This document shows, piece after piece, positions 5,150-60,450 of a DNA stretch of 64,000 bases; positions within the stretch are counted from its first letter, which is position 1; every line of letters begins with the position of its first letter. Location: contig MGVS01000070.1 in the NCBI GenBank assembly GCA_001800605.1, positions 2,910-66,909 of the forward strand. Direction: 5' to 3'. The notes beneath the pieces are model-generated. The model did not search any database and was not told the origin of the DNA. It saw only the letters and a program-made list of their open reading frames with translations. The DNA comes from Elusimicrobia bacterium RIFOXYD2_FULL_34_15 (GTDB lineage: Bacteria > Elusimicrobiota > UBA8919). The position numbers were made by a program, and so were the translations under genes.

Positions 5150-5291
5150 TATGACTACAACCTGACCTTTTGAAGAACTCGAAGCTGACTTACGCTGAAC
5201 AATACGCTGATTGACGCAGACAAAATCAGTGTTTATCTGCGTTGTAATCCGCGTGAATCCGCTTCTATATCTTTTATGCGTGTATCTGCTT

Positions 5292-5690
5292 CTAATCTTT
5301 TCTAGCTTTATCATAAATTCGTCTCCGGATTTCTAATTTCTTGCTTCCAAAATTTATTAGTAAACCTAATTTATAATTACTTGCTTTTAGATAATACCAA
5401 AATTGTTTTTCATGTTCTTTTGTTATAAACGGCTGGCATTTAATTTCTATTAGGATTTTTTCATTAATAATTTTATCCGGAATGTAAGTTCCAACTTTAT
5501 TTTCATGATAATAAATATCTATTCTTTTTTGTTCTTCTACTTTAAGTCCTTGTTTTAATAATTCTAAACCAAGAGCGTTATCAACGATTGATTCCTTAAA
5601 TGCACCGTGAAATTCTTTCCAAATTTCGAAACATGCTCCTCTTATTTTATAAGTTTCTTTTTCGTATAAAAAATCCCCCATTTTTTTCAT
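5292..5690 (-). CDS. GxxExxY family protein (PD-(D/E)xK-fold, TIGR04256-like selfish small gene)
   Basis: N-terminal FLYEKETYKIRGACFEIWKEFHGAF matches the GxxExxY signature, and the C-terminal LINFGSKKLEIRR matches too. Its stop codon TAG is supplied by the repeat motif ATCTGCTTCTA. Confidence 0.7.
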   Translation of the reverse strand: MKKMGDFLYEKETYKIRGACFEIWKEFHGAFKESIVDNALGLELLKQGLKVEEQKRIDIYYHENKVGTYIPDKIINEKILIEIKCQPFITKEHEKQFWYYLKASNYKLGLLINFGSKKLEIRRRIYDKARKD

Positions 5691-5692
5691 CA

Positions 5693-5830
5693 GCTTAGAT
5701 CAGCGTTGCTATCAGCGTGTATCTGCTTCCATGCCCTTTCCGCGTAAATCTGCGTTCCAATCTGCGTAGATCTGCTTCAACGCACTTTCCGCGTAAATCT
5801 GCGTTCCAATCTGCGTAGATCTGCTTCTAT
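5693..5830. repeat. Repeat block of the ATCTGCGT/ATCTGCTTC family. It includes a perfect tandem duplication of a 43-nt unit, CTTTCCGCGTAAATCTGCGTTCCAATCTGCGTAGATCTGCTTC, at 5736-5778 and 5785-5827 (period 49).
   Basis: Direct reading of the sequence. Identical copies are separated by AACGCA. Confidence 0.8.
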
Positions 5831-5837
5831 GAATTTA

Positions 5838-9392: not shown

Positions 9393-9477
9393 GATTACAC
9401 CGATTAAACAGCAAGATTACACAGATTAGATACCGACAGTAATATCCGTGTAATCGTCTTTTAAAATCTGTGTAATC
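9393..9477 (-). promoter_or_regulatory. Cluster of GATTACAC(A/C)G motifs (GATTACAC x4) upstream of the large pilin gene
   Basis: The same motif pairs occur at 573-608, 22716-22838 and 44571-44622. Each is in sense orientation upstream of a gene. Confidence 0.35.
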
Positions 9478-9552
9478 AAGAGCGGTGAATGCTTTTCAAC
9501 GCTCTAATATTTATAACACAAAACACACAAAAAGTCAAGGAGTTTTTAAATT

Positions 9553-9716
9553 CAGTATACAGTACACAGGATACAGTCTTAAGAAAAATCATAAGTTAAA
9601 ATTAAATCTAAATAGTAAGAGCTATTTGCTATTTATGCGTGCTGTGTACTGTCTTTTTAGTGCTATATTCTGTGTACTGTATTCTGTATTCTGTATACTG
9701 AGTACTGTCTTTTTAA
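9553..9716. repeat. ACAGGATACAG/CTGTATTCTGTAT repeat block with inverted-orientation arms. MITE-like element, about 165 nt.
   Basis: Left arm cagtatacagtacacaggatacagtc, right arm ctgtattctgtattctgtatactgagtactgtc. Same family as 15412-15470 and 34680-34725. Confidence 0.5.
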
Positions 9717-11632
9717 TATCTCCATGGATACCATTTTCTTTCTTCATCTTCAGGATTTTCAGTCTTTTTCTCACCGCCACCCGGTTTTATCCGGATGTTA
9801 AACCAGAATTCATAATAATTTTCTTTTTGGTCAAGAGGAATTCTTTGAATATAAGAAAAAGATGCTTCCCAACAGTGTAAATTTCTATAAACTTTTATAG
9901 CATTTTCATAATATCTGAAATTTGAAAAATTATAATTTAAAAAATCATAATTTAAAGATGTCTGCATTTTATATGCAATTTCCCAGTTTTTTGTTGGTCT
10001 AATTCCGGTTTCTGCAAAGGTGGTAAGTTTGCCCGGAGCAGCAAGGTTATAAGATACTCCGTTTTTTAAATAAGCATTTCCCTTAAAATTTATATTTGTA
10101 TCTAATTGTACGGAATTTGGTTTTCTGAATAATACGTTATAATCATTTCTATAGTAGACATTAAAAAATCTGTATGGGCTATAATCAATTTCAGTAGTTA
10201 TGCCTTCTAAACGTTCTCTAAAAGATATTATTTTTTCATTAAGCGCTCTGCGTATATTAAGTGCTGTAAAACCTCTAACAGTTAGATTATTCAAATATAC
10301 GGATTGAATTGTTCTTATCTTGTTTGTTAATACTCCATGATAATCATCATGCCGTAAATCAGGTTGTTGTTCAAATTCATGGATAAATTGGTGGTCAAAA
10401 ATTCTGGTTGAGCGTATATCCAAATCTAAATTTGTCCTGTATCGCCATGAATAAACATTTTTTTCTCTCGCAGTAATTTCGTCTCTATCTTTCCAAAATT
10501 GCTTATATCCTACTGCGGAGGTTAGTGTAATCCTTCTTGAAATAGAAAGCGGATTGGAAAATTTGATATCACCGGTTGCACCGGTTGTATAGGCACCGGT
10601 GGAAATAATTGACTTATCCCATGACCTTGCTCCGCTTAGATTTAATTCGTAATAAAGCGGTAATTTTTTTATTTTTATTTGCCTGGTCGCAAAAGATACT
10701 GCAGGAACAGATAGGGAATTCAAGATATAAATATTTTTGTTATTATCAAAGACATCACTTCTTGCAAATGTGATACGGGTTGTTGTTTGCTCTTTGTTTT
10801 TTGTAAGTGAAATCGAAGAATCTAAACTATTATAAATTTTTATCCAGTCATTTGTATAATATGCGTTAAATGACTCGTCGCTTGCATAATTTGAATTAAT
10901 TTGAGCAATCCAGTTTTGGCCTAAATTCTGCCAGTGATAAACCCTTGAATTCCACCTGATTTGTCCGGGTTTAGATGCGAAATTTTTTCCTTTAATTCTA
11001 TATCCATAAATTGTCCCGTTAACTTTGCCTTCATCTTTATAGAAAATTTCCCCTCCAGTTCCGATACCATTTATGGTAAAGTAATCAAGATAAAGTTTCC
11101 CGTAGATATATTCTGAAAGCGGATACCCAAGCATACCTTTTGCAAAAAATCCGTCGCGATTATTATAACCCGGCTTAATTTCAATTTTGTATTTTCTTTG
11201 TTTTAAATTTTTGTAATAGTATGGAAGTATTGCTGAAGGAATATCTCCTAGAAATAATACGACGTTTGTTGCGGTTATTCTTTTATTGACTATAAGGCTG
11301 GCACTTCTTGCATAATATTTGTAGTGCGGATTTTCGAGGTCACAAGTAGTGAAATAAATTCTTTTCAACAAAAGCTCTTGTGTTTTTTGATATGCTTCCA
11401 CAGAATCGCAGTTTAAATATGTATCCGTAGTTTTTAATTTTACATTGCCTGAAAAAATAGTTTTCCCTTGTAATTTATCAAACTGAACTTTATCGGAAGT
11501 TATATTGACTTCCTGCTCGCAATATAAATAAGTAACGGGTAACGAGTAACGGGTAACGAAAAGAACAGTAATGAGTAATGAGTAACGGGTAACGGGTAAT
11601 AAGATTATAAATAGTTTTTTTATATGTTTCAT
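9713..11632 (-). CDS. lptD: LPS-assembly protein LptD (OstA family)
   Basis: An OstA-like N-domain (NITSDKVQFDKLQGKTIFSGNVKL) is followed by a long beta-barrel body. The N-terminal signal region LPVTRYSLLITVLFVTRYSLPVTYL is encoded by the GTAACGGGTAACGAG repeat. Confidence 0.7.
   Translation of the reverse strand: MKHIKKLFIILLPVTRYSLLITVLFVTRYSLPVTYLYCEQEVNITSDKVQFDKLQGKTIFSGNVKLKTTDTYLNCDSVEAYQKTQELLLKRIYFTTCDLENPHYKYYARSASLIVNKRITATNVVLFLGDIPSAILPYYYKNLKQRKYKIEIKPGYNNRDGFFAKGMLGYPLSEYIYGKLYLDYFTINGIGTGGEIFYKDEGKVNGTIYGYRIKGKNFASKPGQIRWNSRVYHWQNLGQNWIAQINSNYASDESFNAYYTNDWIKIYNSLDSSISLTKNKEQTTTRITFARSDVFDNNKNIYILNSLSVPAVSFATRQIKIKKLPLYYELNLSGARSWDKSIISTGAYTTGATGDIKFSNPLSISRRITLTSAVGYKQFWKDRDEITAREKNVYSWRYRTNLDLDIRSTRIFDHQFIHEFEQQPDLRHDDYHGVLTNKIRTIQSVYLNNLTVRGFTALNIRRALNEKIISFRERLEGITTEIDYSPYRFFNVYYRNDYNVLFRKPNSVQLDTNINFKGNAYLKNGVSYNLAAPGKLTTFAETGIRPTKNWEIAYKMQTSLNYDFLNYNFSNFRYYENAIKVYRNLHCWEASFSYIQRIPLDQKENYYEFWFNIRIKPGGGEKKTENPEDEERKWYPWRY
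11523..11605. repeat. GTAACGGGTAACGAGTAACG-family tandem repeats, here inside the 5' end of lptD
   Basis: aacgggtaacgagtaacgggtaacgaaaagaacagtaatgagtaatgagtaacgggtaacgggtaat. Family members occur at 16745-16785, 17205-17260, 21050-21100, 24060-24095, 25605-25690 and 48570-48760. Confidence 0.8.
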
Positions 11633-12581: not shown

Positions 12582-13792
12582 TTTATGGCCTCCGAAACCG
12601 TATAAAATGAACCGGTTATACAAAAATTGCTTAAACTATTTACTGCTGATTTTGTTGCAGATTTGATATCCTTATACACAAAGACGTTCTTTATAGGAAT
12701 ATATTTAATAAATTCGTTCTTTACCGTTTCAGGCTTTAATGCCCGCTTTATTTTTGGTGCTGAAATAAAAACTTTATTTGCAATAGGTGAAATATTCTTT
12801 ATCATATTTTTATAATCTTTATCTTTTAAAACTCCAAAAACAAAATTTAGTTTTTTATTAAAATATTTTTTTATAGAATCTTTTAAAACAAGCATACCCG
12901 CCGGATTATGCGCCACATCTACAATAATTTTGAATTTATTTTCGCCATTACTTCTATGGCGAATCCGCCAAAGTCTCAGTGGCGGAAATTGCCTTACTTC
13001 AAATCTTCCGGGCAAATTAGTTTTTTTTAATCCTTCTTGAATGTTCTTATTAGAAATATTCAATATTTGTGCGCATTTAGCTGCAATAGAAGCATTTTGT
13101 TGCTGATGATTTCCAAATAGCGGAAGCTTATATTTCTTTGTTATTTTCACAGGGAAAATTGCCGCATTCTTTTTTTTTGCAAATTCTTTTATAGTTTTTA
13201 ATGCAATACCTGTTGAACCGGTTATAACAGTTCCATTGTTTTTTATAATTCCCGATTTTTCTCCTGATATTTTTTTTATTGTATAACCAAGATATTGTGT
13301 ATGTTCAAGCGAAATATTTGTAATTATAGAAATAAGAGTATTTTTTACTACATTTGTTGCATCTAATCTGCCACCAAGGCCCACTTCTATTACTGCAAAA
13401 TCTACTTTTCTTCTTTCGAAATGCCAGAAAGCCATTGCCGTTAAAAATTCAAAATAGGTTAATGAATATTTATTTGCTAATTTATGAAATTTTGTTGTAA
13501 ATTCTGAAAACTCATTTTTAGATATTAATTTTCTATTTATTTGTATTCGTTCCCTGATATCTGAAATATGAGGAGATGTAAAAAGTCCGACATTGTATTT
13601 TGCATTTTGTAAGGTTGAGGAGATGTAGGCACAGACAGAACCTTTTCCATTGGTTCCTGCGACATGAATTATCTTGAGTTTATCCTGCGGATTAGCGAGT
13701 TTTTCTAAAAATATTTTTATTCGATTCAAATCAAAATCATATGAAAATTCGCCAAGATTATATACATATTTTAGCGATTGTTGATAGTTCAT
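12566..13792 (-). CDS. folC: Bifunctional folylpolyglutamate synthase / dihydrofolate synthase
   Basis: IHVAGTNGKGSV P-loop, FTSPHI, Mur ligase fold. Confidence 0.85.
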   Translation of the reverse strand: MNYQQSLKYVYNLGEFSYDFDLNRIKIFLEKLANPQDKLKIIHVAGTNGKGSVCAYISSTLQNAKYNVGLFTSPHISDIRERIQINRKLISKNEFSEFTTKFHKLANKYSLTYFEFLTAMAFWHFERRKVDFAVIEVGLGGRLDATNVVKNTLISIITNISLEHTQYLGYTIKKISGEKSGIIKNNGTVITGSTGIALKTIKEFAKKKNAAIFPVKITKKYKLPLFGNHQQQNASIAAKCAQILNISNKNIQEGLKKTNLPGRFEVRQFPPLRLWRIRHRSNGENKFKIIVDVAHNPAGMLVLKDSIKKYFNKKLNFVFGVLKDKDYKNMIKNISPIANKVFISAPKIKRALKPETVKNEFIKYIPIKNVFVYKDIKSATKSAVNSLSNFCITGSFYTVSEAIKCLRI

Positions 13793-15403: not shown

Positions 15404-15411
15404 AGGATACA

Positions 15412-15470
15412 GGATACAGGATACAGGATACAGGATACAGGATACAGGATACAGAATACAGAATACAGAA
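15412..15470. repeat. Microsatellite (CAGGATA)7(CAGAATA)3, the reverse complement of (CTGTATC)n. It lies directly upstream of the trpA start, between trpB and trpA.
   Basis: acaggatacaggatacaggatac...agaatacagaatacagaatt read directly. Confidence 0.85.
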
Positions 15471-15494
15471 TTATAAACTGCTAACGATCTTTCT

Positions 15495-15530
15495 TTTTAC
15501 CTCTCTACCTCTCTACCCTTCTACCTTGAT
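15495..15530. repeat. CTCTACC-family repeat, abutting and supplying the TAG stop of trpB
   Basis: cctctctacctctctacccttctacc. Related copies at 33985-34005, 34755-34790 and 42262-42306. Confidence 0.6.
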
Positions 15531-16687: not shown

Positions 16688-16784
16688 ATCGATTTATTAT
16701 ACAAAAAATAGCATAAAAAACAATAAAAATAGCAGTTAACATATTACCCATTACTCGTTACTCATTACCCGTTACTTATTTTCT

Positions 16785-17207: not shown

Positions 17208-17250
17208 TTTACCCGTTACTCGTTACTCAGCCTGTCCCGATTTATCGGGA

Positions 17251-19475
<2,225 letters not shown>

Positions 19476-19486
19476 ATATTTCCAAT

Positions 19487-20998
19487 TTATTCAGTTGTAA
19501 AAATGTTTTTAAATTCTTTCAAAACATCGCTTAATTTTGTTTCAAGCTCTTTGGTTATTTCCTTTTTTTGAATTAAGTCGCTTATTATTTCCGGATGATT
19601 TTTTTCACAGAAATCAAACAAATCTTTCTCGAATTTTTTTATTTTGGATAATTCTATATCATCGAGAAAACCTTTTGTTCCTGCAAAGATTATGAGTATT
19701 TGCTTTTCAACTATTAACGGTTCAAATTGGTCCTGTTTAAGAATTTCAACGAGTCTTTCTCCTCTTGTTATCTGAGATTTAGTTGCAGCATCCAATTCGG
19801 AAGAAAATTGTGCAAAAGAAGATAAATCATTATATTGTGCAATATCAAGCCGTAAACTGCCCGCTATTTGTTTCATCGCTTTTATTTGGGCACTCCCGCC
19901 GACACGTGAAACTGATAATCCTACATTTACCGCGGGGCGGATACCGGAATAAAATAAATTATTTTCAAGATAAATCTGTCCGTCAGTTATCGATATAACA
20001 TTTGTCGGAATATAAGCTGAAATATCACCGGCTTGAGTTTCTATTATAGGCAATGCGGTTATAGAACCGGCGCCATTTTCATCCGAAAGTTTACACGCCC
20101 GTTCAAGCAGACGAGAATGTAAATAGAAAACGTCTCCGGGGTATGCTTCCCTTCCGGGAGGTCTTCTTAAAAGCAAAGATATTTGTCTGTACGCCTGAGC
20201 ATGTTTTGAAAGATCATCAAATACAATCAGGACATCTTTTCCTTTCCACATGAACTCTTCTGCAATTGCACAGCCGGAATAGGGTGCAATATAAAGAAGC
20301 GGGGCTGCATCTGCGGCAGAAGCTGCTATCATAATGGTATATTCATCTGCACCATATTTTTTGAATGTATCGAAAATACTTGCTATTGTAGATTGTTTTT
20401 GTCCTATAGCGACATATATACAAATAGGCCTGTTTTTTTCATTTTTCTGGTTGATAATTGCGTCAACAACTATTGCGGTTTTGCCAATCTGCCTGTCGCC
20501 AATAATTAATTCCCGCTGGCCTCTGCCGATTGGAATCATTGAATCGATTGCTTTTAGACCGGTTTGCAGAGGTATTTTTACCGGCTGCCTTTCCGCTATA
20601 TTGGGTGCAACGATTTCTATTGGTCTTTTTTTGTCAGTTTTAGGGTTTTCTTTTCCGTCAAGTGAAAACCCTAAAGGATTAATAATTCGACCTATAAGTT
20701 GTTCACCCACAGGCACTTCCATTATTTGTCTGGTTCTTTTTACAATATCGCCTTCTTTAAGAAGTTTTTCATCTCCGAATAAAATACAGCCTACCTCTTC
20801 CTGTTCAAGGTTAAGAGCCATACCAAAAACACCATTTGGAAATTCAATCAGTTCATTAACAAAAGCATTGTTTAAACCCTGAATTCGCGCAATACCATCG
20901 CCAACAGAAACAATGCTTCCCACCTCATCAACTGAAATATTCTTTTTAAATGATGCAATTTTCGATTTAATAATGTCTGTAATTTCTTCCTGTTTCAT
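19487..20998 (-). CDS. atpA: F0F1 ATP synthase subunit alpha
   Basis: GDRQIGKTA Walker A. Full length. Confidence 0.95.
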
Positions 20999-21104
20999 AA
21001 ATTATCCTTGTTTTGTCAGCCGAAGTTCCTTCGGAACGTAGGTATGCTGCCTTTTACTCATTACCCCCGCCACAGGCGGGCAAGCGTTACCCGTTACTAG
21101 TTAC

Positions 21105-21629
21105 TCATGAATTCATCTCTTGTCCCATTTGCTCTATTTTTCCTCTTACACTTCCGTCAATAACCAAATCACCTGCTTTAATTATTAATCCGCCAAGTAT
21201 TGATTTATCAATAGATTCCTTTATTAAAATATTTTTGTTGGTAATCTTAGCAACCCTATTTTTAATTTTATCCAAAATCTGTATTTCAAGTTTAATACTT
21301 GATATAACTTCTGCAGAAATTGTGTTTTGAGAATCAAGAGTTTCTATTATATATTTAGATTCAATATCAGGTAAAATCCGTAATTCTCTTCTTTCAATAA
21401 GGATAAATAATAAATTTAATAATATCTTTGGCAGACTATCAAAACTACTTTTAATAACATCGAATTTTGTTTCCTCATCAATAAACGGATTAATAAAAAA
21501 ATTTATTGTTTCTTTTTCATAAAGAAGTTTTATTTTCTCAAACGCATCTCCAATTTCTTTTACCTGATTAGTTTCGGTAGCCAATTGAAAGAGTGCCTTG
21601 GCATATTTTCTAGAATTATTTTTTTTCAT
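21105..21629 (-). CDS. atpH: F0F1 ATP synthase subunit delta (OSCP)
   Basis: YAKALFQLA is the delta N-terminal motif. Start set at the ATG codon (MKKNNSRKY); the ORF-track start at 21653 is a TTG. Confidence 0.7.
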   Translation of the reverse strand: MKKNNSRKYAKALFQLATETNQVKEIGDAFEKIKLLYEKETINFFINPFIDEETKFDVIKSSFDSLPKILLNLLFILIERRELRILPDIESKYIIETLDSQNTISAEVISSIKLEIQILDKIKNRVAKITNKNILIKESIDKSILGGLIIKAGDLVIDGSVRGKIEQMGQEMNS

Positions 21630-21689
21630 TGTTTTGATTTTTAAAAAACCCAAAAATCATAGAGATCGTTGAAGACTTTTTCAACGGTC

Positions 21690-22181
21690 TCATTGTTTAA
21701 TCTCGGATATATCCGTTAAAAATTTTTCAATAAGCTGGTTTTGTGTACTTTTATCCATAGTTTTATCTAATATTTTTTCAGCTATGGATATAGCTATTGG
21801 AACAATTTCTTTTCTTAAATCACTTTTTACCGACTCTCTTTCTTGTTCCATCTGTTTTTTAGCTAAATCGAGTATTTTCTTAGCTTCATCCCGTGCTTCT
21901 GTGATTAGCTGCTGTTTTTGGGTTTCGGCAGTAGAAGATGCTTTTTCAAGAAGTTCTTTTGCCTTTTTATCTATATCAATTATCATCTGTTCATAATTTA
22001 CTTTAAGTCTTTCAGTTTCTTGTTTAAAATTTTCCGAGTCGGAAATATTTTTAGCAATATCATTCTTTCTCTTAAATAAAATTTGAACAAGCGGTTTCCA
22101 TGCAATTTTCCATAGTATGAGAATACCTATTAAAAAAGTTACAATTTGAACCAAAATAATCTTTAAATCAATTTCTAACAT
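21690..22181 (-). CDS. atpF: F0F1 ATP synthase subunit b
   Basis: Single N-terminal TM helix then a long charged coiled coil. Position in the operon fits. Confidence 0.75.
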   Translation of the reverse strand: MLEIDLKIILVQIVTFLIGILILWKIAWKPLVQILFKRKNDIAKNISDSENFKQETERLKVNYEQMIIDIDKKAKELLEKASSTAETQKQQLITEARDEAKKILDLAKKQMEQERESVKSDLRKEIVPIAISIAEKILDKTMDKSTQNQLIEKFLTDISEIKQ

Positions 22182-22195
22182 AATACCCTTAATCG

Positions 22196-22312
22196 ATGAA
22201 CGAGGGAGTCGTTGAGGAATGCCCTCACGGAGTTCCGCTTACGCATTCAGCGGAACGAGTGGGGACGGCCCCACCAGGGGACCGTGTGCTGACGAAACGA
22301 ACTCCCGAGCGA
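22196..22312 (-). ncRNA. GC-rich (about 60%) structured element, about 117 nt, between atpE and atpF. Multiple stem-loops, candidate structured RNA of unknown class.
   Basis: Hairpins gttccgct-tacgcattc-agcggaac, gggg-acgg-cccc, cccc-acca-gggg and tgagg-aatgc-cctca, plus a closing pairing gggagt.../...actccc. Surrounding DNA is under 30% GC. Confidence 0.3.
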
Positions 22313-22315
22313 ATG

Positions 22316-22693
22316 CTATTGGATGAAATACTTCGTAAACGGATTTGCAAATAAAAGAATTATACTTATAAATAGTACATATAAAACCAATGATTCAATG
22401 AATGCAAGACCGATAATCATAGATAACTGTAATTGTGCACCGGCTTCAGGCTGACGAGCTATTCCTTCCAATGCTTTTCTAATTGAAAACATTTGTGAAA
22501 GTGCTCCCGCGACGGCAACAATCACTAGTCCAGAGCTTGCAACAACAACTGATTTTGTAAAAAAATCAGCTGCTCCGGGTGCTAAAGTTACAGCAGTTGC
22601 AGCCGTTGATTCAGCAGCACCAAACACAAGTGATGAAATTGATACTACAATTAAAGAACCAAAAAAACCATAAATCCAATACCCTTTTTTCAT
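22316..22693 (-). CDS. atpE: F0F1 ATP synthase subunit c, with an N-terminal hydrophobic extension of about 45 aa
   Basis: C-terminal 75 aa, GLVIVAVAGALSQ...ARQPEAG..L...IGLAFIESLVLY, form a typical c-subunit hairpin with the conserved carboxylate (E). Confidence 0.8.
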   Translation of the reverse strand: MKKGYWIYGFFGSLIVVSISSLVFGAAESTAATAVTLAPGAADFFTKSVVVASSGLVIVAVAGALSQMFSIRKALEGIARQPEAGAQLQLSMIIGLAFIESLVLYVLFISIILLFANPFTKYFIQ

Positions 22694-22715
22694 ATACCAT
22701 CTCCTTTTAAAAATG

Positions 22716-22838
22716 GATTACAGGGATTTAAGCTGCTGATTACGGGGATTAATCATCATAATCCTCTGGCCCCTTAATCACTGTAACCGTTTTGTTTTTA
22801 ATCTGTGTAATCGTCTCTCAAAATCTGTGTAATCAGAC
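22716..22838 (-). promoter_or_regulatory. GATTACA(G/C) / AATCTGTGTAATC motif cluster upstream of atpE
   Basis: aatctgtgtaatcgtctctcaaaatctgtgtaatcagac. Same paired motif as at 573-608. Confidence 0.35.
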
Positions 22839-22840
22839 AT

Positions 22841-23566
22841 CTAATGTTCTGCTTTCACTGCACCAGCAACATAAGTTATACTCAATAGTAAAAATATTAA
22901 TGCCTGTACCAAACCTATTAATATAGCTAAAATAATAATGATTGGTCTTAGAAATAGCGGCATGATAACAATAGTTTTAGACATACCAGGTAATAGAAGA
23001 AATGTAATAATTAAACTTGCCATAACACCCAGCAATGTTTCCTTTGCGAATACGTTGCAAAATAAACGTAGTGACAGAGAAAAAGGTCTAACAAACTGGC
23101 TGATAATTTCTATAAAAAAAATGAGTATGTTTACAGGGAACATCCATAAAGGAAGGCCGGAAATAATAAATTTTTTTAAATAAGAGATTTTATGTTTCAT
23201 AAATCCCTGGAGATTGTAATATAAAAATATAGTTATTGATAGCGCAATAGGAACATTTATGTTGGATGTCGGAGAAATCATACCTGGTATTATACCTAGA
23301 ACATTTGAAAAAAATATGAAAAAAAATATTCCTAAAAATAGAGGATAATATTTTCTTGCATCTTTACCGATTACGTTATCTGCTAAATTGAAAATCTGTT
23401 CGAAAATTATCTCAAAGAAATTCTGCATACTCTTGGGAACTATTGAAATGTTTTTACGCGCTATTATTGATACAATAAAAATTAATGTCCATGAAATTAA
23501 AGACATTAATATTATTGTAGGAACATGCGGGATGTTGAATTCTATTGCTTCTTTAACAATTTGCAT
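22841..23566 (-). CDS. atpB: F0F1 ATP synthase subunit a
   Basis: SLSLRLFCNVFAKE contains the conserved Arg of subunit a. Polytopic. Confidence 0.85.
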   Translation of the reverse strand: MQIVKEAIEFNIPHVPTIILMSLISWTLIFIVSIIARKNISIVPKSMQNFFEIIFEQIFNLADNVIGKDARKYYPLFLGIFFFIFFSNVLGIIPGMISPTSNINVPIALSITIFLYYNLQGFMKHKISYLKKFIISGLPLWMFPVNILIFFIEIISQFVRPFSLSLRLFCNVFAKETLLGVMASLIITFLLLPGMSKTIVIMPLFLRPIIIILAILIGLVQALIFLLLSITYVAGAVKAEH

Positions 23567-23852: not shown

Positions 23853-24059
23853 TTATTGTTTTTGAAATTTTTTTATCTCCTTAAATATTGAATATAATCC
23901 GCTAATCATTCCTATTAACGTAAAAATTATTGTAAATATAGGATGAGTTTTAAATAATTTATCCAAAAAAATACCTATGCCGAGTCCGACTACGATAGAT
24001 AAAAGTAAAATTAATCCAAAAGACGCGGCGGATAAAAAATTATAAAAAACCTCCTTCAT
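23853..24059 (-). CDS. Small membrane protein, AtpZ-like. Assigned by position only.
   Basis: 68 aa with two TM helices at the head of the atp operon. Confidence 0.3.
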   Translation of the reverse strand: MKEVFYNFLSAASFGLILLLSIVVGLGIGIFLDKLFKTHPIFTIIFTLIGMISGLYSIFKEIKKFQKQ

Positions 24060-24097
24060 TTTACACGTTACCCATTACTCGTTACTCGTTACTTTCT

Positions 24098-25048: not shown

Positions 25049-25711
25049 TTATTTTTTTGGAAGCGTCATTAAAGTTGTGTTAATAACACCGTTAGCTTCC
25101 TCTTTTAACGGTGAGTGCAAAGCTTTATCTATAGTTTTTTCAACAAGTTGTGAGGCAAACGCTCTCCCGATATCCTTAAATTCAAATTCTTTTTTTGAAA
25201 CTTTTCGTTCATCTTCCCATAAAAGCTGTTCTGTTTTTGCATCAAATAATTTAAAATTTCCCTCGACAGTTCTTGCATAATAAAAACCAAGAGTAGTATA
25301 TTTAAACTCTATTACATCTCCGAAAAAAAGCCCGTCAACGTTTAATTTTTCACCTAATTCTTTCGGGGTGGTTGTCGGAAATTGCCCGGCTTCGGTAATA
25401 CCCATTTTTCTTAATTTCTCATCTATTTCTTCAAGCGGAATAGTGTTATAACCAATATTGGTTAGCCGTTTATTAAAAAGATACCGCAATAAAACCGGTG
25501 CATTCAAATCAATGGATTGGTTGGAAAACGGCAAAACAGCAACTCGCGCAGGCGGTATATAATTTTCTATTATATACTTTGCTTTCGGCGCACAACCAAT
25601 AAATAAAAAACAAATAACGAGTAATGAGTAACCAGTAAAAGACAAGTAATGAGTAACGGGTAACGAGTAACGGGGAACGGGTAAAAAGTAAAGTAATTTT
25701 AAATTTTTCAT
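25049..25711 (-). CDS. Lipoprotein, possibly the DUF799-type partner of CsgG-like proteins
   Basis: Lipobox FIGC and adjacency to the CsgG-like gene. N-terminal 30 aa (LPVPRYSLPVTHYLSFTGYSLLVI) are encoded by the GTAACGGG repeat. Confidence 0.35.
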   Translation of the reverse strand: MKNLKLLYFLPVPRYSLPVTHYLSFTGYSLLVICFLFIGCAPKAKYIIENYIPPARVAVLPFSNQSIDLNAPVLLRYLFNKRLTNIGYNTIPLEEIDEKLRKMGITEAGQFPTTTPKELGEKLNVDGLFFGDVIEFKYTTLGFYYARTVEGNFKLFDAKTEQLLWEDERKVSKKEFEFKDIGRAFASQLVEKTIDKALHSPLKEEANGVINTTLMTLPKK

Positions 25712-25771
25712 TGGTTTTATATTAGATTGAATAATTTTTAACTTTTAACTTTTAATTTTTAATTGCTTTTA

Positions 25772-26248
25772 TTATGCGCCTCTTGCGATTGCTATAATAC
25801 CTGTTCTTGCAACTTCTTTTATACCGAACGGTTTAAGCATATTTAATATTGCCTGAATCTTATCTTCGTCGCCGGTCATTTCAATAATAACTGTGTTTAC
25901 TGAAACATCGATAATTTTTGCTCTGAATATATCCACAATCTGTAGTATTTCGTTTCTTGTATTTTTATCTGCTTTAACTTTAATAAGCACTAAATCTCTT
26001 TCAATATGCTCTATATTTAAAAAATCATTTAGTTTTATAACATCAATCAGCTTATTTAATTGTTTTTCTACTTGTTCAAGTATTTTTTCGTCACCGTTTA
26101 CTACAATTGTCATTCTTGAAATAGTCGGGTCATCTGTTTCACCGACTGCTAATGAATCGATATTGTAGCCGCGTGCTGCAAAAAGCGTTGCAATTCTTGC
26201 TAAAACACCTGATTTGTTTTCGACTAAAACTGAAATTGTGTGTTTCAT
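25772..26248 (-). CDS. ilvN: Acetolactate synthase small (regulatory) subunit
   Basis: ACT domain ISVLVENKSGVLARIATLFAARGYNIDSLAV. Confidence 0.85.
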   Translation of the reverse strand: MKHTISVLVENKSGVLARIATLFAARGYNIDSLAVGETDDPTISRMTIVVNGDEKILEQVEKQLNKLIDVIKLNDFLNIEHIERDLVLIKVKADKNTRNEILQIVDIFRAKIIDVSVNTVIIEMTGDEDKIQAILNMLKPFGIKEVARTGIIAIARGA

Positions 26249-33533: not shown

Positions 33534-34703
33534 TTAGAGTTCGATTGCTGATATAATTTTTTTGATATTTGGTTCTAATACTTTTGGTTGTTTTGCCGAT
33601 TTTATTGCTCTATCAGGATCTTTCAGTCCATGTCCCGTTACCGTGCAAACAATCACACAGCCTGATTTTTGGATATTTATTTTTGAATTGAATTTTATAA
33701 GTCCGGCGACGGATGCTGCTGATGCCGGTTCGACAAAGACACCTTCTAAAGAAGCTAATAGTCTATATGCTTTTATTATTTCTGAATCAGTGACCATATC
33801 TATAACACCCTTTGATTCGTCTCTTGCTTCTTCTGCTTTTTTCCAACTTGCGGGATTTCCGATTTTTATAGCGGTTGCTATTGTCTTTGGGTTTTTTATT
33901 GGTTTACCTTTTACAATAGGTGCAGAACCGGATGCCTGAAAACCCATCATGTGTGGCAGGTTACAGGTCTCGCCACGGCGAGCAGGAAAAGGTAGAAAGG
34001 TAGAAAGGTTAGGACTTAATTTTAACCTTTTACTTTTAACTTTTAACTTTGATTTATCATTTGCATATTCTTTATAGCCTTTCCAGTAAGCAGTGATATT
34101 TCCGGCGTTTCCGACCGGAATAAAATGATAATCCGGAGCCCTGCCCAAAAAGTCGATTATTTCAAAAGCTGCGGTTTTTTGGCCTTCAATTCTATATGGA
34201 TTTACTGAATTAACAAGCGTAATCGGATAATTTTTTGTTATTTCAATAACGATTTTTAGTGCCTCATCAAAATTCCCTTTTAATGCTATGACCTTTGCTC
34301 CATGCATCATTGCCTGTGAAAGTTTGCCTAACGCGATAGAACCATCGGGAATTACAACTGAACATTTAAGTCCTGCTCTTGCGGAATACGCAGCAGCTGA
34401 CGCAGCGGTATTGCCGGTTGAAGCACAAATAACTGCTTTGCTTCCTTCTTCAACTGCTTTAGAAATTGCCATTGTCATACCGCGGTCTTTGAAAGAACCG
34501 GTTGGATTCATCCCTTCAAATTTTAAATAAATCTCAGAATTTACCTTTAAGAATTTTTCGAGGTTTCTTGCCCGTAACAATGGCGTATTACCCTCATAAA
34601 GCGTAACTATAGGTGTCTTGTCAGACACGGGTAGATACTTCCTATATCTATCAATAATCCCTTTATAAATCATATTTAAACCAGGATACAGAATACAGTA
34701 CAC
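33534..34703 (-). CDS. thrC: Threonine synthase, carrying an in-frame insertion of about 35 aa derived from intergenic repeat families
   Basis: PLP site [18 protein letters not shown], then ...[18 protein letters not shown]-[insert][14 protein letters not shown]. Confidence 0.85.
33955..34064. repeat. Composite repeat inserted in-frame in thrC. Units are tcgccacggcgag, (ggtagaaag)2 and (ttttaac)n.
   Basis: ggtctcgccacggcgagcaggaaaaggtagaaaggtagaaaggttaggacttaattttaaccttttacttttaacttttaactttga. It translates to [35 protein letters not shown]. Confidence 0.8.
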
Positions 34704-34790
34704 AGGATACAGTATTATAAGTTCTCGTCTATTAACTTCAAATTATAAACTTTTTCCTCTCTACCTTTTTCCCTTTTTACCGTATCTTTA
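34680..34790. repeat. thrC-hom intergenic repeats: an ACAGGATACAG family member plus a CTCTACC family member
   Basis: ccaggatacagaatacagtacacaggatacag ... cctctctacctttttccctttttacc. Confidence 0.7.
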
Positions 34791-37399: not shown

Positions 37400-37404
37400 T
37401 AAAA

Positions 37405-37502
37405 CCTCGCGGATTCACGCTGATACCTACGCTGATCTACGCTGAACTTTCCGCGTTGTAATCCGCGTTTATCTGCTTCTATGCTTTCAGCGTGGATCTG
37501 CT
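37405..37502. repeat. ATCTGCGT/ATCTGCTTC family repeat block. It supplies the C-terminus and TGA stop of the 87-aa ORF.
   Basis: cgctgatctacgctgaactttccgcgttgtaatccgcgtttatctgcttctatgctttcagcgtggatctgcttc. Confidence 0.7.
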
Positions 37503-37750
37503 TCGAGTCTTTCAATGTACTCAGGGATCCGTTTAGACAATTCAAAAATCGCTAACCCAATTACTATGCATGCAAGTCCATAAACAACTTCAAAACCCGA
37601 ATATTTTGACCATTTAGCAAGCGGAACGAATTCTGACTCCGGAAAGCCGATGAGAGCATCATAAAGTCCTTTAAGTGCTACAATGCCCCCCCAGACAACA
37701 AAAATCCATCCGCTGCTTTTAAAAACTGCACGATATTTTATTTTTTGCAT
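37487..37750 (-). CDS. Small membrane protein (2 TM), unknown function
   Basis: 87 aa. Hydrophobic segments IFVVWGGIVAL and VVYGLACIVIGLAIF. Confidence 0.3.
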   Translation of the reverse strand: MQKIKYRAVFKSSGWIFVVWGGIVALKGLYDALIGFPESEFVPLAKWSKYSGFEVVYGLACIVIGLAIFELSKRIPEYIERLEADPR

Positions 37751-37802
37751 AGTTAGAAATCAGGTTAAAATTTAGAAGTTATAATTAAATGTTTTAATCC
37801 TC

Positions 37803-37878
37803 AATTTTTTCCGCCACTATTTCTCGGGCGGACCCGCCCCCGCCACTGAGACATTGGCGGGCAAGAACGACTTAGTGG
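37803..37878. repeat. GC-rich hairpin repeats, CCGCCACT...AGTGGCGG family
   Basis: ccgccactatttctcgggcgg, cccgccactgagacattggcggg, acgacttagtggcggg. The relative at 60318-60364 shares ACGACTTAGTGGCGG. Confidence 0.65.
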
Positions 37879-37911
37879 CGGGAACTTTTACCTTTAACTT
37901 TTTAATTGCTT

Positions 37912-42216: not shown

Positions 42217-42328
42217 TTATTAGATTTTACTAAATTTTATTTATTTAGGCAAGAACGAATATAAAAGGTAAAGAGGTAAAAAGGTAGAAAGGTAGAGAGG
42301 TAAAAATGTAACAGTAAAATTAAACTTC

Positions 42329-44544: not shown

Positions 44545-44571
44545 ACTATTTTTAAAATAAAAATAGTTTTG
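44544..44571 (+). terminator. AT-only hairpin AACTATTTTT-AAAAT-AAAAATAGTT followed by TTG after the PBP1A stop. Weak intrinsic terminator candidate.
   Basis: Perfect 10-bp inverted repeat read from the sequence. Confidence 0.3.
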
Positions 44572-44622
44572 ATTACACACCTGCCTGCCGGCAGGCAGGG
44601 ATTTTAAAAGCTGATTACACAG
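44571..44622 (+). promoter_or_regulatory. Two GATTACACA(G) direct repeats flanking a perfect 20-bp GC palindrome CCTGCCTGCCGGCAGGCAGG. Then TATAAAT, AGGAGG and a GTG start for the DUF2148 gene.
   Basis: gattacacacctgcctgccggcaggcagggattttaaaagctgattacacagatatataaat...gagaggaggtttgtGTG. Confidence 0.4.
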
Positions 44623-44651
44623 ATATATAAATATTATGAGAGGAGGTTTGT

Positions 44652-48559: not shown

Positions 48560-48760
48560 GAATTACGCATTAACCAGCCTGTCCCGATTCATCGGAATTA
48601 CCCGTTACTTAGCCTGTCCTGCCGCCCATGGCGAGCCTCGCCCCTTTGGGGCGGGAGCATTTTAAACTGTCGAAGGATTACTCATTACCCCGCCACTAGG
48701 TCTTTGGCGGGCAAGCATTACCCGTTACCCGTTACTCGTTACTATCTTTTTATTCTTTTT
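48560..48760. repeat. Composite intergenic repeat block. It contains a CAGCCTGTCCCGATTCATCGG hairpin unit, GC-rich hairpins (gccgcccatggcgag, ctcgcccctttggggcggg, ccgccactaggtctttggcgg) and GTAACGGG units.
   Basis: The same units recur at 17205-17260 and 21050-21100. Confidence 0.7.
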
Positions 48761-49319
48761 GTTTCTTTAATACTACTTTATCAATTTCTTCAATTTTCTT
48801 TTTTGCCCACCTGTTCTCAGGAAATTTCGTTATTAAAAGTTCTTTTGCTTTTTTTAAAGCATCAGGACGCTGCGGCATAGAATAGTATTCTTCTATTATT
48901 CTTTGGTATAATCTGATAGCTTCCCTGAAATTGGAGAGCTGTTCATCTATTTTTGCTGCTTCATCCAATGACCATGAAGCATACTGACTTTTTGGGAATT
49001 TATTAGCAAGTTCTTCATAAGCGACTGTAGCTTCATTCCATTGATTCATCCTTACAAATGATTCGGCTATTTTCTTTTGAGCTTCATCTCCGTAATAGAT
49101 ATCACCAAACTGGTCTATATAATACTGATATTCGGCAATAGCTTCATTATATTTACCGTCATAATAATATTTTTCTGCCCGTTGGAATTGCTGAACTGCA
49201 GCCTGGTTCCCCCAGTAATCACCGGTTCTAACAGGTCTTCTCAGGGCGCAACCGACAAAAAGGCAATTAAAAATTAAAAATGAAAAATTAAAAATTAAAG
49301 TTAAACTTCTTTTTTTCAT
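48750..49319 (-). CDS. TPR-like lipoprotein (BamD/YbgF-like)
   Basis: Signal MKKRSLTLIFNFSFLIFNCLFVGC is near-identical to the signal of 47748-48479 and is encoded by the repeat at 49265-49298. TPR helices follow. Confidence 0.5.
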   Translation of the reverse strand: MKKRSLTLIFNFSFLIFNCLFVGCALRRPVRTGDYWGNQAAVQQFQRAEKYYYDGKYNEAIAEYQYYIDQFGDIYYGDEAQKKIAESFVRMNQWNEATVAYEELANKFPKSQYASWSLDEAAKIDEQLSNFREAIRLYQRIIEEYYSMPQRPDALKKAKELLITKFPENRWAKKKIEEIDKVVLKKQKE

Positions 49320-60317: not shown

Positions 60318-60364
60318 ATTTCCACCACTGATACTTCGGTGGATCCGCCTACGACTTAGTGGCG
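60318..60364. repeat. GC-rich hairpin pair (CCACCACTGATACTTCGGTGG, CCGCCTACGACTTAGTGGCGG) downstream of ispD
   Basis: Family shared with 37803-37878, 48686-48718 and 21066-21092. Confidence 0.65.
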
Positions 60365-60450
60365 GAAAAAATTAAGATTTTATATCTCAATTTTTAATCC
60401 AGTAACTAACTCGGGACAAGTTTTTGCATTTTTAATTTTTTTTAACTCTC

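Follow-up and report, generated by a model that had tools for sequence, protein, structure and literature searches.

A GC-rich element between atpE and atpF of an Elusimicrobia genome is probably one copy of a small family of dispersed structured repeats

Small structured repeats of bacterial intergenic DNA form a known class that includes ERIC, Correia, RUP, YPAL and REP/REPIN (PMC2229807, PMC3184786, PMC3733652). ERIC/IRU, Correia/NEMIS, RUP and YPAL elements are non-coding, 100-170 bp in length, and have inverted-repeat ends that close a long structure. As miniature inverted-repeat transposable elements (MITEs), repeats of the ERIC type are found in short spacers, including those of operons, in either orientation and co-transcribed with the genes around them. 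Co-transcribed ERIC repeats in Yersinia affect mRNA stability in an orientation-dependent manner (PMC2229807). REPs measure 20-40 nt and carry a GTAG or CGTC tag (PMC3733652). Here, we describe a GC-rich element in the spacer between atpE and atpF, the genes for the c and b subunits of the F-type ATP synthase, in Elusimicrobia bacterium RIFOXYD2_FULL_34_15. The DNA analyzed, referred to below as the window, is a stretch of 64,000 nt (contig MGVS01000070.1, assembly GCA_001800605.1, positions 2,910 to 66,909 of the forward strand). The element is probably one copy of a small, hitherto undescribed family of non-coding structured repeats, MITE- or REP-like in character, from a groundwater clade of the Elusimicrobiota. 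Its distribution, size, inverted ends, length variants, an orphan fragment and a tandem duplication match the known class, within which we place it as a new family.

The initial annotation had placed a GC-rich multi-hairpin stretch at 22196-22312, and these 117 nt do have a GC content of 61.5%. Based on similarity among copies, the true extent is slightly longer, from the TTAATC starting at 22189 to the TAT at 22317-22319 (22189-22319, ~131 bp). The helical core (22204-22306) has 63% GC as compared to 33.7% for the whole window. The atpE-atpF spacer as such is 134 nt long with 58% GC overall, peaking at 68% in a 60-nt sliding window, and is one of the two highest non-coding GC islands of the window, the other being located at 37791-37896 (70% GC). 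The figure of less than 30% GC assumed for intergenic DNA was too low for several of the other long spacers, which range from 13% to 49% GC. The element lies within a complete F-type ATPase operon on the minus strand, where it abuts and overlaps the stop codon of atpE (22316-22318) and ends 8 nt before the start codon of atpF. It is very probably transcribed within the atp mRNA; co-transcription is made plausible by the lack of any terminator-like site within the spacer and by the nearest promoter-like match being a weak one (9/12, 22117-22145, plus strand, upstream of the element), of a quality for which 15 matches are expected by chance across the scanned AT-rich region.

The family is defined by copies at unrelated loci. 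The element contains a spurious open reading frame (ORF) of 52 aa, which was searched against 1.8 billion protein representatives. A profile search in a word-indexed protein database returned no candidates, and an index-free search returned P0031, which is 84% identical over the element part and is encoded on the contigs L038, L039 and L040 (contigs and loci are given as L numbers throughout) as well as in a record of Elusimicrobia bacterium RIFOXYD2_FULL_34_15. On these contigs, the copy is located between a phosphoribosyltransferase gene and a tRNA-Arg(CCU) gene, on the same strand as the tRNA. In L039, it shares 91% identity with the window copy over 101 nt; the 3' arm of the L038/L039 copy is partly degraded, and a 17-nt orphan of the 5' end of the element is found 150 nt upstream of it. 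A covariance model built from three copies identified a further one in L013 (54.5 bits, E 1.9e-14) as well as the copy in L005 (E 2e-4). The L013 copy is antisense to ilvB and ilvN and is located in the spacer that separates the ilvB stop codon from ilvN. In L005 (UBA4817) and L026, the atpE-atpF spacer contains a homologue that is richer in AT (41-43% GC) and oriented as in the window, and L026 has a tandem duplicate of it, including a few bases of the atpE end. In L015/L023, a GC-rich homologue is located directly before atpF in the opposite orientation: the plus strands of L015 and the window share 67% identity over 92 nt (blastn, E 5e-8), with that of L015 sense and that of the window antisense to atpF. 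With the rebuilt model, full or near-full copies scored 79-137 bits, L005 29 bits and L026 18 bits (filters off). Finally, in contig L031, atpE and the element are linked to a ThiD2 gene via a different 5' flank (GAGTGA, like L039); the element is probably upstream of ThiD2 here, which hints at a second copy in the window species. BLAST and a scan of the collected DNA with a descriptor of the GA boxes and the closing helix P1 (see below) gave no copies beyond those named here. The copies thus occupy non-homologous loci in both orientations, with the plus strand antisense to the neighboring genes in four of them (window, L005, L026 and L013) and sense in two (L015 and L038), while the ThiD2 case comes from a doubtful contig. 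Scattered copies elsewhere in the genome had been named beforehand as the mark of a GC-rich REP-type repeat, and copies were found in related genomes at ilvB-ilvN, at tRNA-Arg and probably at ThiD2. Among the three options offered initially, a processing or stability element, a small RNA (sRNA), or a mobile remnant, the scattered and inverted copies favor the last; a high-copy REP is not supported, as the element's own contig holds a single copy in 74 kb.

The secondary structure of the element is kept by compensatory substitutions. The plus strand of a 120-nt stretch folds at -52.7 kcal/mol, compared to -38.3 +/- 3.4 kcal/mol for shuffled sequences (z -4.2, with none of 200 as good), and the minus strand, the sense of the atp mRNA, at -46.4 kcal/mol (z -2.6, 1 of 200 as good). 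In the three full-length copies that were folded, the z scores of plus strand and complement are -4.2/-2.6, -2.9/-2.1 and -2.5/+0.4, respectively; the truncated L015/L023 fragment folds without such a difference. An alignment of four sequences has 90.8% of its cells in standard pairs, as opposed to 34-54% when the partners are slid by 1-3 columns, and 12 of the 29 pairs are changed on both sides, a number reached by none of 500 shuffles. This alignment was fitted to the covariance model and its counts therefore lean towards structure; helices read by hand in six copies are paired with different sequences, in agreement with it. Changes on both sides affect 4 of the 10 pairs in P1 and 4 of the 7 in the arm P2, which is paired in every cell. 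Between the window and L039, the four in-helix substitutions compensate each other in twos: a U-A pair of P2 is replaced by C-G, and a C-G pair of the hairpin P3 by U-A, the one compensated pair in P3. L005 and L026 differ by double changes, two in P1 and one in P2, as counted with a hand-made script because MAFFT put the GC-rich and AT-rich subfamilies out of register. Read in the open frame, one of the four substitutions between the window and P0031 is synonymous and three are non-synonymous, and all are RNA-compensatory; the conservation is thus not of the protein type, and a small protein gene (the 52-aa ORF, 22196-22354) was rejected. The modelled helices hold four G.U and three A.C pairs, and since the former do not clearly exceed the latter, this test of the functional strand is not decisive. 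Judged by the fold, the better-defined strand of the element appears to be antisense to the atp operon in the window.

Read on the plus strand, family copies of ~110-150 bp consist of the closing helix P1, the long arm P2 and the bulged hairpin P3. The coordinates of these parts in the window are given in the table below, together with neighboring genes and other repeats. All hairpins listed in the initial annotation were recovered, including the one in P2 (GTTCCGC(T)/(A)GCGGAAC), TGAGG/CCTCA (22213-22227) and the closing GGGAGT/ACTCCC pairing, which forms part of P1; GGGG/CCCC and CCCC/GGGG are present as two alternative pairings around 22261-22280. The 5' flank reads TTAATC in the window and L005, CTAATC in L026, TGAATC in L013, TTAATG in L031 and TTGATG in L039, and beyond it the sequences of the copies are unrelated. 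In each copy whose 5' end is covered, a GA box adjoins P1. P1 is 10 bp with one bulged A in the window and 10-13 bp with a one-base purine bulge in the family, the bulge being on the 3' strand in copies other than L013. It is paired despite different sequence in L013 (9/9), L005 (13/13) and L026 (13/13), with only 6/8 in L039. Of the two alternative pairings of the linker, the minimum-free-energy fold picks CCTCAC/GTGGGG, which pairs at 6/6 positions in the window and L039 and at 5/6 in L013; CCTCACGGA is the same in these three copies. P2 comprises 7-8 bp across the family, with a loop that begins with UUA in GC-rich copies; compared to the window, the loop is identical in L039 and matches at 9 of 11 positions in L015, and in L013 it reads UUA...UCA. 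In L013 and L015, P3 differs in sequence but is likewise a stem of two parts that has its bulge on the 3' side. The CUGACGA of the following joiner is not conserved in L013 or L015.

The GAGCGA-NNNN-TAT at the 3' end is common to the window, L005, L026, L013 and L015, whereas the 3' GA box of L039 is degenerate (TAAACC). In the three antisense copies, this 3' motif is the reverse complement of the A-TAA or A-TAG of the upstream gene. Both GA boxes show the same word when read along one strand, and read antiparallel in L005 and L026 they give G.A, A.G, G-C, C-G, G.A and A.G; the window boxes have an A.C mismatch at the third position. Tandem sheared G.A pairs are known to be stable, and the boxes may thus form a purine-purine extension of P1. 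As direct repeats, they could be taken for a target-site duplication, a reading which was rejected as they are the same at unrelated loci and mutually complementary via G.A pairs.

Table. Positions in the window (or in the contig named) of the parts of the element, of the atp genes and of other repeats
Feature	Position	Strand	Remarks
5' flank	22189-22194	+	TTAATC, start of similarity among copies; followed by three variable bases
5' GA box	22198-22203	+	GAACGA; family consensus GAGCGA
P1, 5' strand	22204-22213	+	GGGAGTCGTT; pairs with 22296-22306
Linker	22214-22228	+	Two alternative pairings: small hairpin GAGG/CCTC, or CCTCAC (22223-22228) with 22259-22264, extending P2
P2 hairpin	22229-22258	+	GTTCCGC (22232-22238), loop TTACGCATTCA (22239-22249), GCGGAAC (22250-22256)
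Internal loop around P2	22229-22231 / 22257-22258	+	GGA / GA, conserved
P2 extension, 3' strand	22259-22264	+	GTGGGG; family GUGRGR, partner CCUCAC
P3 hairpin	22265-22285	+	ACGGCCCC, loop ACCA, GGGG-A-CCGT; A 22281 bulged
Joiner J3/1	22286-22295	+	GTGCTGACGA, variable
P1, 3' strand	22296-22306	+	AACGAACTCCC; A 22300 bulged
3' GA box	22307-22312	+	GAGCGA; identical in window, L005, L026, L013 and L015
3' flank	22313-22319	+	ATGCTAT; overlaps the atpE stop (CTA 22316-22318, TAG on the minus strand)
atpB	22841-23566	-	
atpE	22316-22693	-	c subunit, 125 aa, PF00137; gene upstream of the element
atpF	21690-22181	-	b subunit, 163 aa; homologues with PF00430, named F0F1 ATP synthase subunit B of Elusimicrobiota; gene downstream of the element
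atpH	21105-21653	-	
atpA	19487-20998	-	
Heptamer spacers, window	5226-5836, 9550-9712, 11516-11628, 15404-15470, 15490-15527, 16715-16782, 24056-24093, 25605-25692, 25719-25775, 34662-34720, 37400-37514, 42260-42318, 48700-48761		
Heptamer atpE-atpF spacers, relatives			L004, L007, L008, L009/L010/L017, L018, L041
Second hairpin family, window	12938-12988, 21060-21085, 37805-37880, 48600-48720, 60318-60368		
Second hairpin family, L039	9062-9148, 11233-11308		Near-identical copies

Several of the properties expected of a MITE are found in the family. It is short and non-coding (~131 bp, with helix changes that are RNA-compensatory), it has terminal inverted repeats in the form of P1 arms of 10-13 bp next to both ends of full-length copies, and it occurs at non-homologous loci in both orientations. 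Correia elements come in lengths of ~107 and ~155 bp, and length variants of our element likewise arise from internal insertions, an 18-nt hairpin inserted in the joiner of L039 and, in L013, a 31-nt insertion that replaces the small hairpin of the linker. There are also differences from ERIC-type repeats. TA termini and a demonstrable target-site duplication are lacking, the element is rich in GC where those are rich in AT, its tip is branched and bears conserved internal loops in place of a plain long hairpin, its copy number is apparently low, and it shows no sequence similarity to any described family. The P1 arms, moreover, are degraded in L039 and differ in sequence between copies, unlike terminal inverted repeats bound by a transposase. 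REP/BIME/REPIN sequences, which are mobilized by RAYT (Y1 HUH) transposases, and the PATEs derived from IS200/IS605 resemble the element in being GC-rich extragenic palindromes of operon spacers, in the compensatory upkeep of their structure, in occurring in both orientations and in being proposed stabilizers of mRNA 3' ends, and a strand-specific fold would fit transposition via single-stranded DNA as in REP/PATE. REPs are present in tens to hundreds of copies, whereas the element is ~130 nt long, carries GAGCGA boxes and is found once in 74 kb; size, head motif and local copy number thus speak against membership in REP/REPIN, for which no RAYT/TnpA gene was searched for. A further comparison is offered by the short tandemly repeated repetitive (STRR) heptamers of heterocystous cyanobacteria. 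Tandem heptamers occur around the element and in the atpE-atpF spacer of relatives, while the element itself is not tandem, and the shared spacers are the only link.

Several observations weigh against a mobile repeat. No pair of filled and empty sites and no target-site duplication were found, the GAGCGA boxes being better read as structure than as duplication, and no candidate transposase turned up, although no search aimed at transposases was made; mobility is thus inferred from distribution only. No second copy is present in 74 kb (the 64-kb window and 10 kb of the same contig), even with filters off, and as the foreign, GC-rich tail of L031 suggests that this contig may be a chimera, no second copy was cleanly shown inside a single genome. 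L038/L039 may be from the window species or from a different one, L039 sharing its source sample, ERZ27254750, with the window contig. In addition, at least three or four species have kept the element at atpE-atpF, and even the AT-rich copies of L005 and L026 differ by compensated changes, which suggests selection at this site and a host function, a better fit than a purely selfish element. In the opposite direction, L031 and frequent contig breaks hint at additional copies per genome. Contigs of several independent assemblies (L002, L022-L024, L029, L030, L032 and L033) end inside the element at different positions, which could reflect a repeat, a drop of coverage in a GC-rich hairpin, or variation in the population.

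As a dispersed repeat, the family would spread, or have spread, by some transposition or recombination, and the window copy would have landed directly after the stop codon of atpE, to be passively co-transcribed with the atp mRNA. There, the structure of the reverse complement (~-46 kcal/mol) could block 3' exonucleases or, alternatively, serve as a spacer that uncouples translation, and either effect would favor the output of c subunit over that of b subunit. Any such effect on atp would be a by-product or an exaptation and not the reason for the existence of the family. Given the strong covariation and the persistence at atpE-atpF in several species, the element may nonetheless have been exapted as an intercistronic hairpin that acts locally on the mRNA, and unrelated palindromes occupying the same spot in other relatives leave room for it.

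The same spacer is where the closest rival has to be judged, namely that the element is a dedicated cis-acting part of the atp mRNA, an intercistronic stem-loop that stabilizes the atpE segment, directs processing or uncouples translation of atpF, and so provides many c subunits per b subunit. We consider this unlikely, although the element takes up the spacer from the stop codon of atpE onwards, leaving 8 nt before the atpF start codon, and its mRNA strand has a folding energy of -46 to -49 kcal/mol. The locus was collected from ~20 other genomes and metagenome contigs via homologues of atpF (54-71% identity, all Elusimicrobiota), and conservation at the atpE-atpF junction was borne out only in part. 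L005 and L026 keep homologues in this spacer, and although these have drifted to ~42% GC, the changes in their P1 and P2 are compensated; most relatives lack the element. The spacer is hypervariable among them. In most of them it holds two inverted arrays of 7-nt repeats, another hairpin-forming palindrome at this place, which speaks for a dedicated role; similar palindromes, however, are found in most spacers of the genome and not in atp alone. Several relatives have only 20-45 nt without structure, and L006 has a different GC-rich core. The same element at other loci (ilvB-ilvN, upstream of tRNA-Arg and probably upstream of ThiD2), its inversion relative to atpF in L015 and its absence from most relatives disfavor a role dedicated to atp, as neither the place nor the orientation is fixed and the element is not confined to this operon. 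Furthermore, in the window, L005 and L026, the GAGCGA boxes and the GGA/GA loop are found on the strand antisense to the mRNA of atp, and on the mRNA itself they would present pyrimidine-pyrimidine mismatches. The inversion in L015 was also considered as an invertible promoter switch, which was rejected since the GA boxes are inverted along with the core and recombination between P1 arms cannot explain the flip.

A gene or mobile module for a functional RNA on the plus strand, be it an antisense or trans-acting sRNA, a protein-binding RNA or a new self-cleaving ribozyme, would account for the better fold of this strand in the three full-length copies, and it appears quite doubtful to us. The conserved unpaired motifs can be made sense of on this strand only, where they are purine-rich and could form tandem G.A pairs, conservation of the CCUCACGGA and GAGUG junctions and of part of the P2 loop goes along with covariation in the helices, and in L038 the plus strand is co-oriented with the tRNA-Arg gene directly downstream. 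Against this, the window leaves no room for a promoter or terminator, the 9/12 match being of the kind expected by chance, the balance of G.U and A.C pairs does not single out a strand, CUGACGA is not conserved, no ribozyme or riboswitch model matches at threshold, and P1 is degraded in L039. As a more specific and improbable variant, the plus strand might be the molecule under selection, at the level of RNA or of single strands. It would be a mobile RNA with a three-way junction, a purine-purine helix of the GA boxes and the conserved GGA/GA loop, able to reside antisense in essential operons; its role might be to recruit a protein, or it might cleave or process itself as a new kind of RNA. 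That the element consists of chance GC-rich hairpins or is an assembly artefact, as the contigs breaking inside it could suggest, is hardly credible given the same sequence assembled independently in at least five samples, the homologues with compensatory changes in several other genomes, and the failure of all 200 shuffles to fold as well.

Comparison with known RNA families agrees with the initial annotation, which had recognized no common non-coding RNA (ncRNA). At gathering score, Rfam 15 gave zero matches across the whole window. With the L038 copy, Rfam gave only the neighboring tRNA and noise; ARAGORN found neither tRNA nor tmRNA in the window. A tRNA-like element was rejected on the latter result and because the loops lack a T-loop sequence. 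The only Rfam match in the spacer at E<=10 was to Guanidine-II (mini-ykkC), on the strand antisense to the operon; its 15.4 bits compare to a gathering score of 32. This was rejected, as of the two hairpins with ACGR loops that define this riboswitch, upstream of guanidine-related genes, only GGGG-ACGG-CCCC fits and only on that strand, the covariation backs the competing P3 pairing, and the motif is absent from L013, L015 and L005. A hammerhead ribozyme was suggested by CUGACGAAAC at 22290-22299 and rejected, since the two boxes of the CUGANGA...GAAA core do not enclose a helix (stem II) and L013 and L015 lack the motif; no Rfam hammerhead model matches the window or the L038 copy. An HDV-like reading was rejected as well, as was an integron attC site, the ends of the element not fitting the R''/R' core sites (RYYYAAC...GTTRRRY) and the context being a housekeeping operon instead of a cassette array beside an integrase gene. 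Pattern scans of IMG/VR did not find the element, and blastn against phage and plasmid records gave only chance matches of 33 nt. In the literature on Elusimicrobia repeats and on stem-loops of atp operons, nothing specific was found.

The atp genes and the copies are accompanied by other features. The c subunit has a hydrophobic N-terminal extension of ~45 aa that precedes the usual hairpin and is common to relatives, the c subunit of L013 being 121 aa long. Upstream of atpE, the atpB-atpE spacer (22694-22840) contains short repeats of the GATTACR/YGTAATC type, as do 538-588, 9413-9463 and 44545-44651. Tandem 7-nt repeats (AGGATAC, GTTACYC, TCTGCGT, TTTTAAC, CTCTACC) are present in nearly every longer spacer of the genome and of relatives, often as two inverted arrays that would form long hairpins, and with different heptamers at the same spacer in different genomes. 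No description of such arrays in Elusimicrobiota was found in the literature; they recall the STRR heptamers of cyanobacteria. A second family of GC-rich hairpins, unrelated to the element, is represented by CCGCCACT...AGTGGCGG and GGCGAGCCTCGCCCC...GGGGCGGG, with one copy in the atpH-atpA spacer.

Around the tRNA-Arg copy, 37-nt direct repeats (L038 2451-2487 and 2636-2672) flank the element and form hairpins with GAGCGAAGC or GCGAAGC in the loop. Similar loop words are found just before atpF in L006 and L041, and also in a long hairpin at 1484-1568 of the window, which has a weak model match of 14 bits; the GAGCGAAGC/GCGAAGC hairpins may form a related mini-family or, alternatively, share a protein or structure motif. 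Downstream of tRNA-Arg(CCU), L038 2835-3090 consists of three tandem ~82-nt units of inverted heptamer arrays. In L039 7422-7620 (L038 47-224), two adjacent tRNA-Pro calls have identical 5' two-thirds. The T-arm region of the first is GTCCCGATACATCGGGAT, a hairpin that recurs at 17233-17255 and 48580-48600 of the window, and this call may be a tRNA pseudogene hit by another small repeat. Relatives of the ThiD2 gene of L031 were found to have neither a spacer nor the element upstream.

The GC-rich island inside an essential operon of this AT-rich candidate-phylum genome is thus best read as a dispersed structured repeat and not as an operon-specific riboswitch or ribozyme, and such islands are worth filtering out before GC-based searches for ncRNAs in these genomes. 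No repeat families of these Elusimicrobiota turned up in the literature searched, and the family described here gives the groundwater Elusimicrobiota a compact structure with strong covariation, for which a model and six members are available. The atpE-atpF spacer is a hot spot in this clade, filled time and again by different hairpin-forming repeats, and could be a natural test case for exaptation in which such repeats tune subunit stoichiometry.

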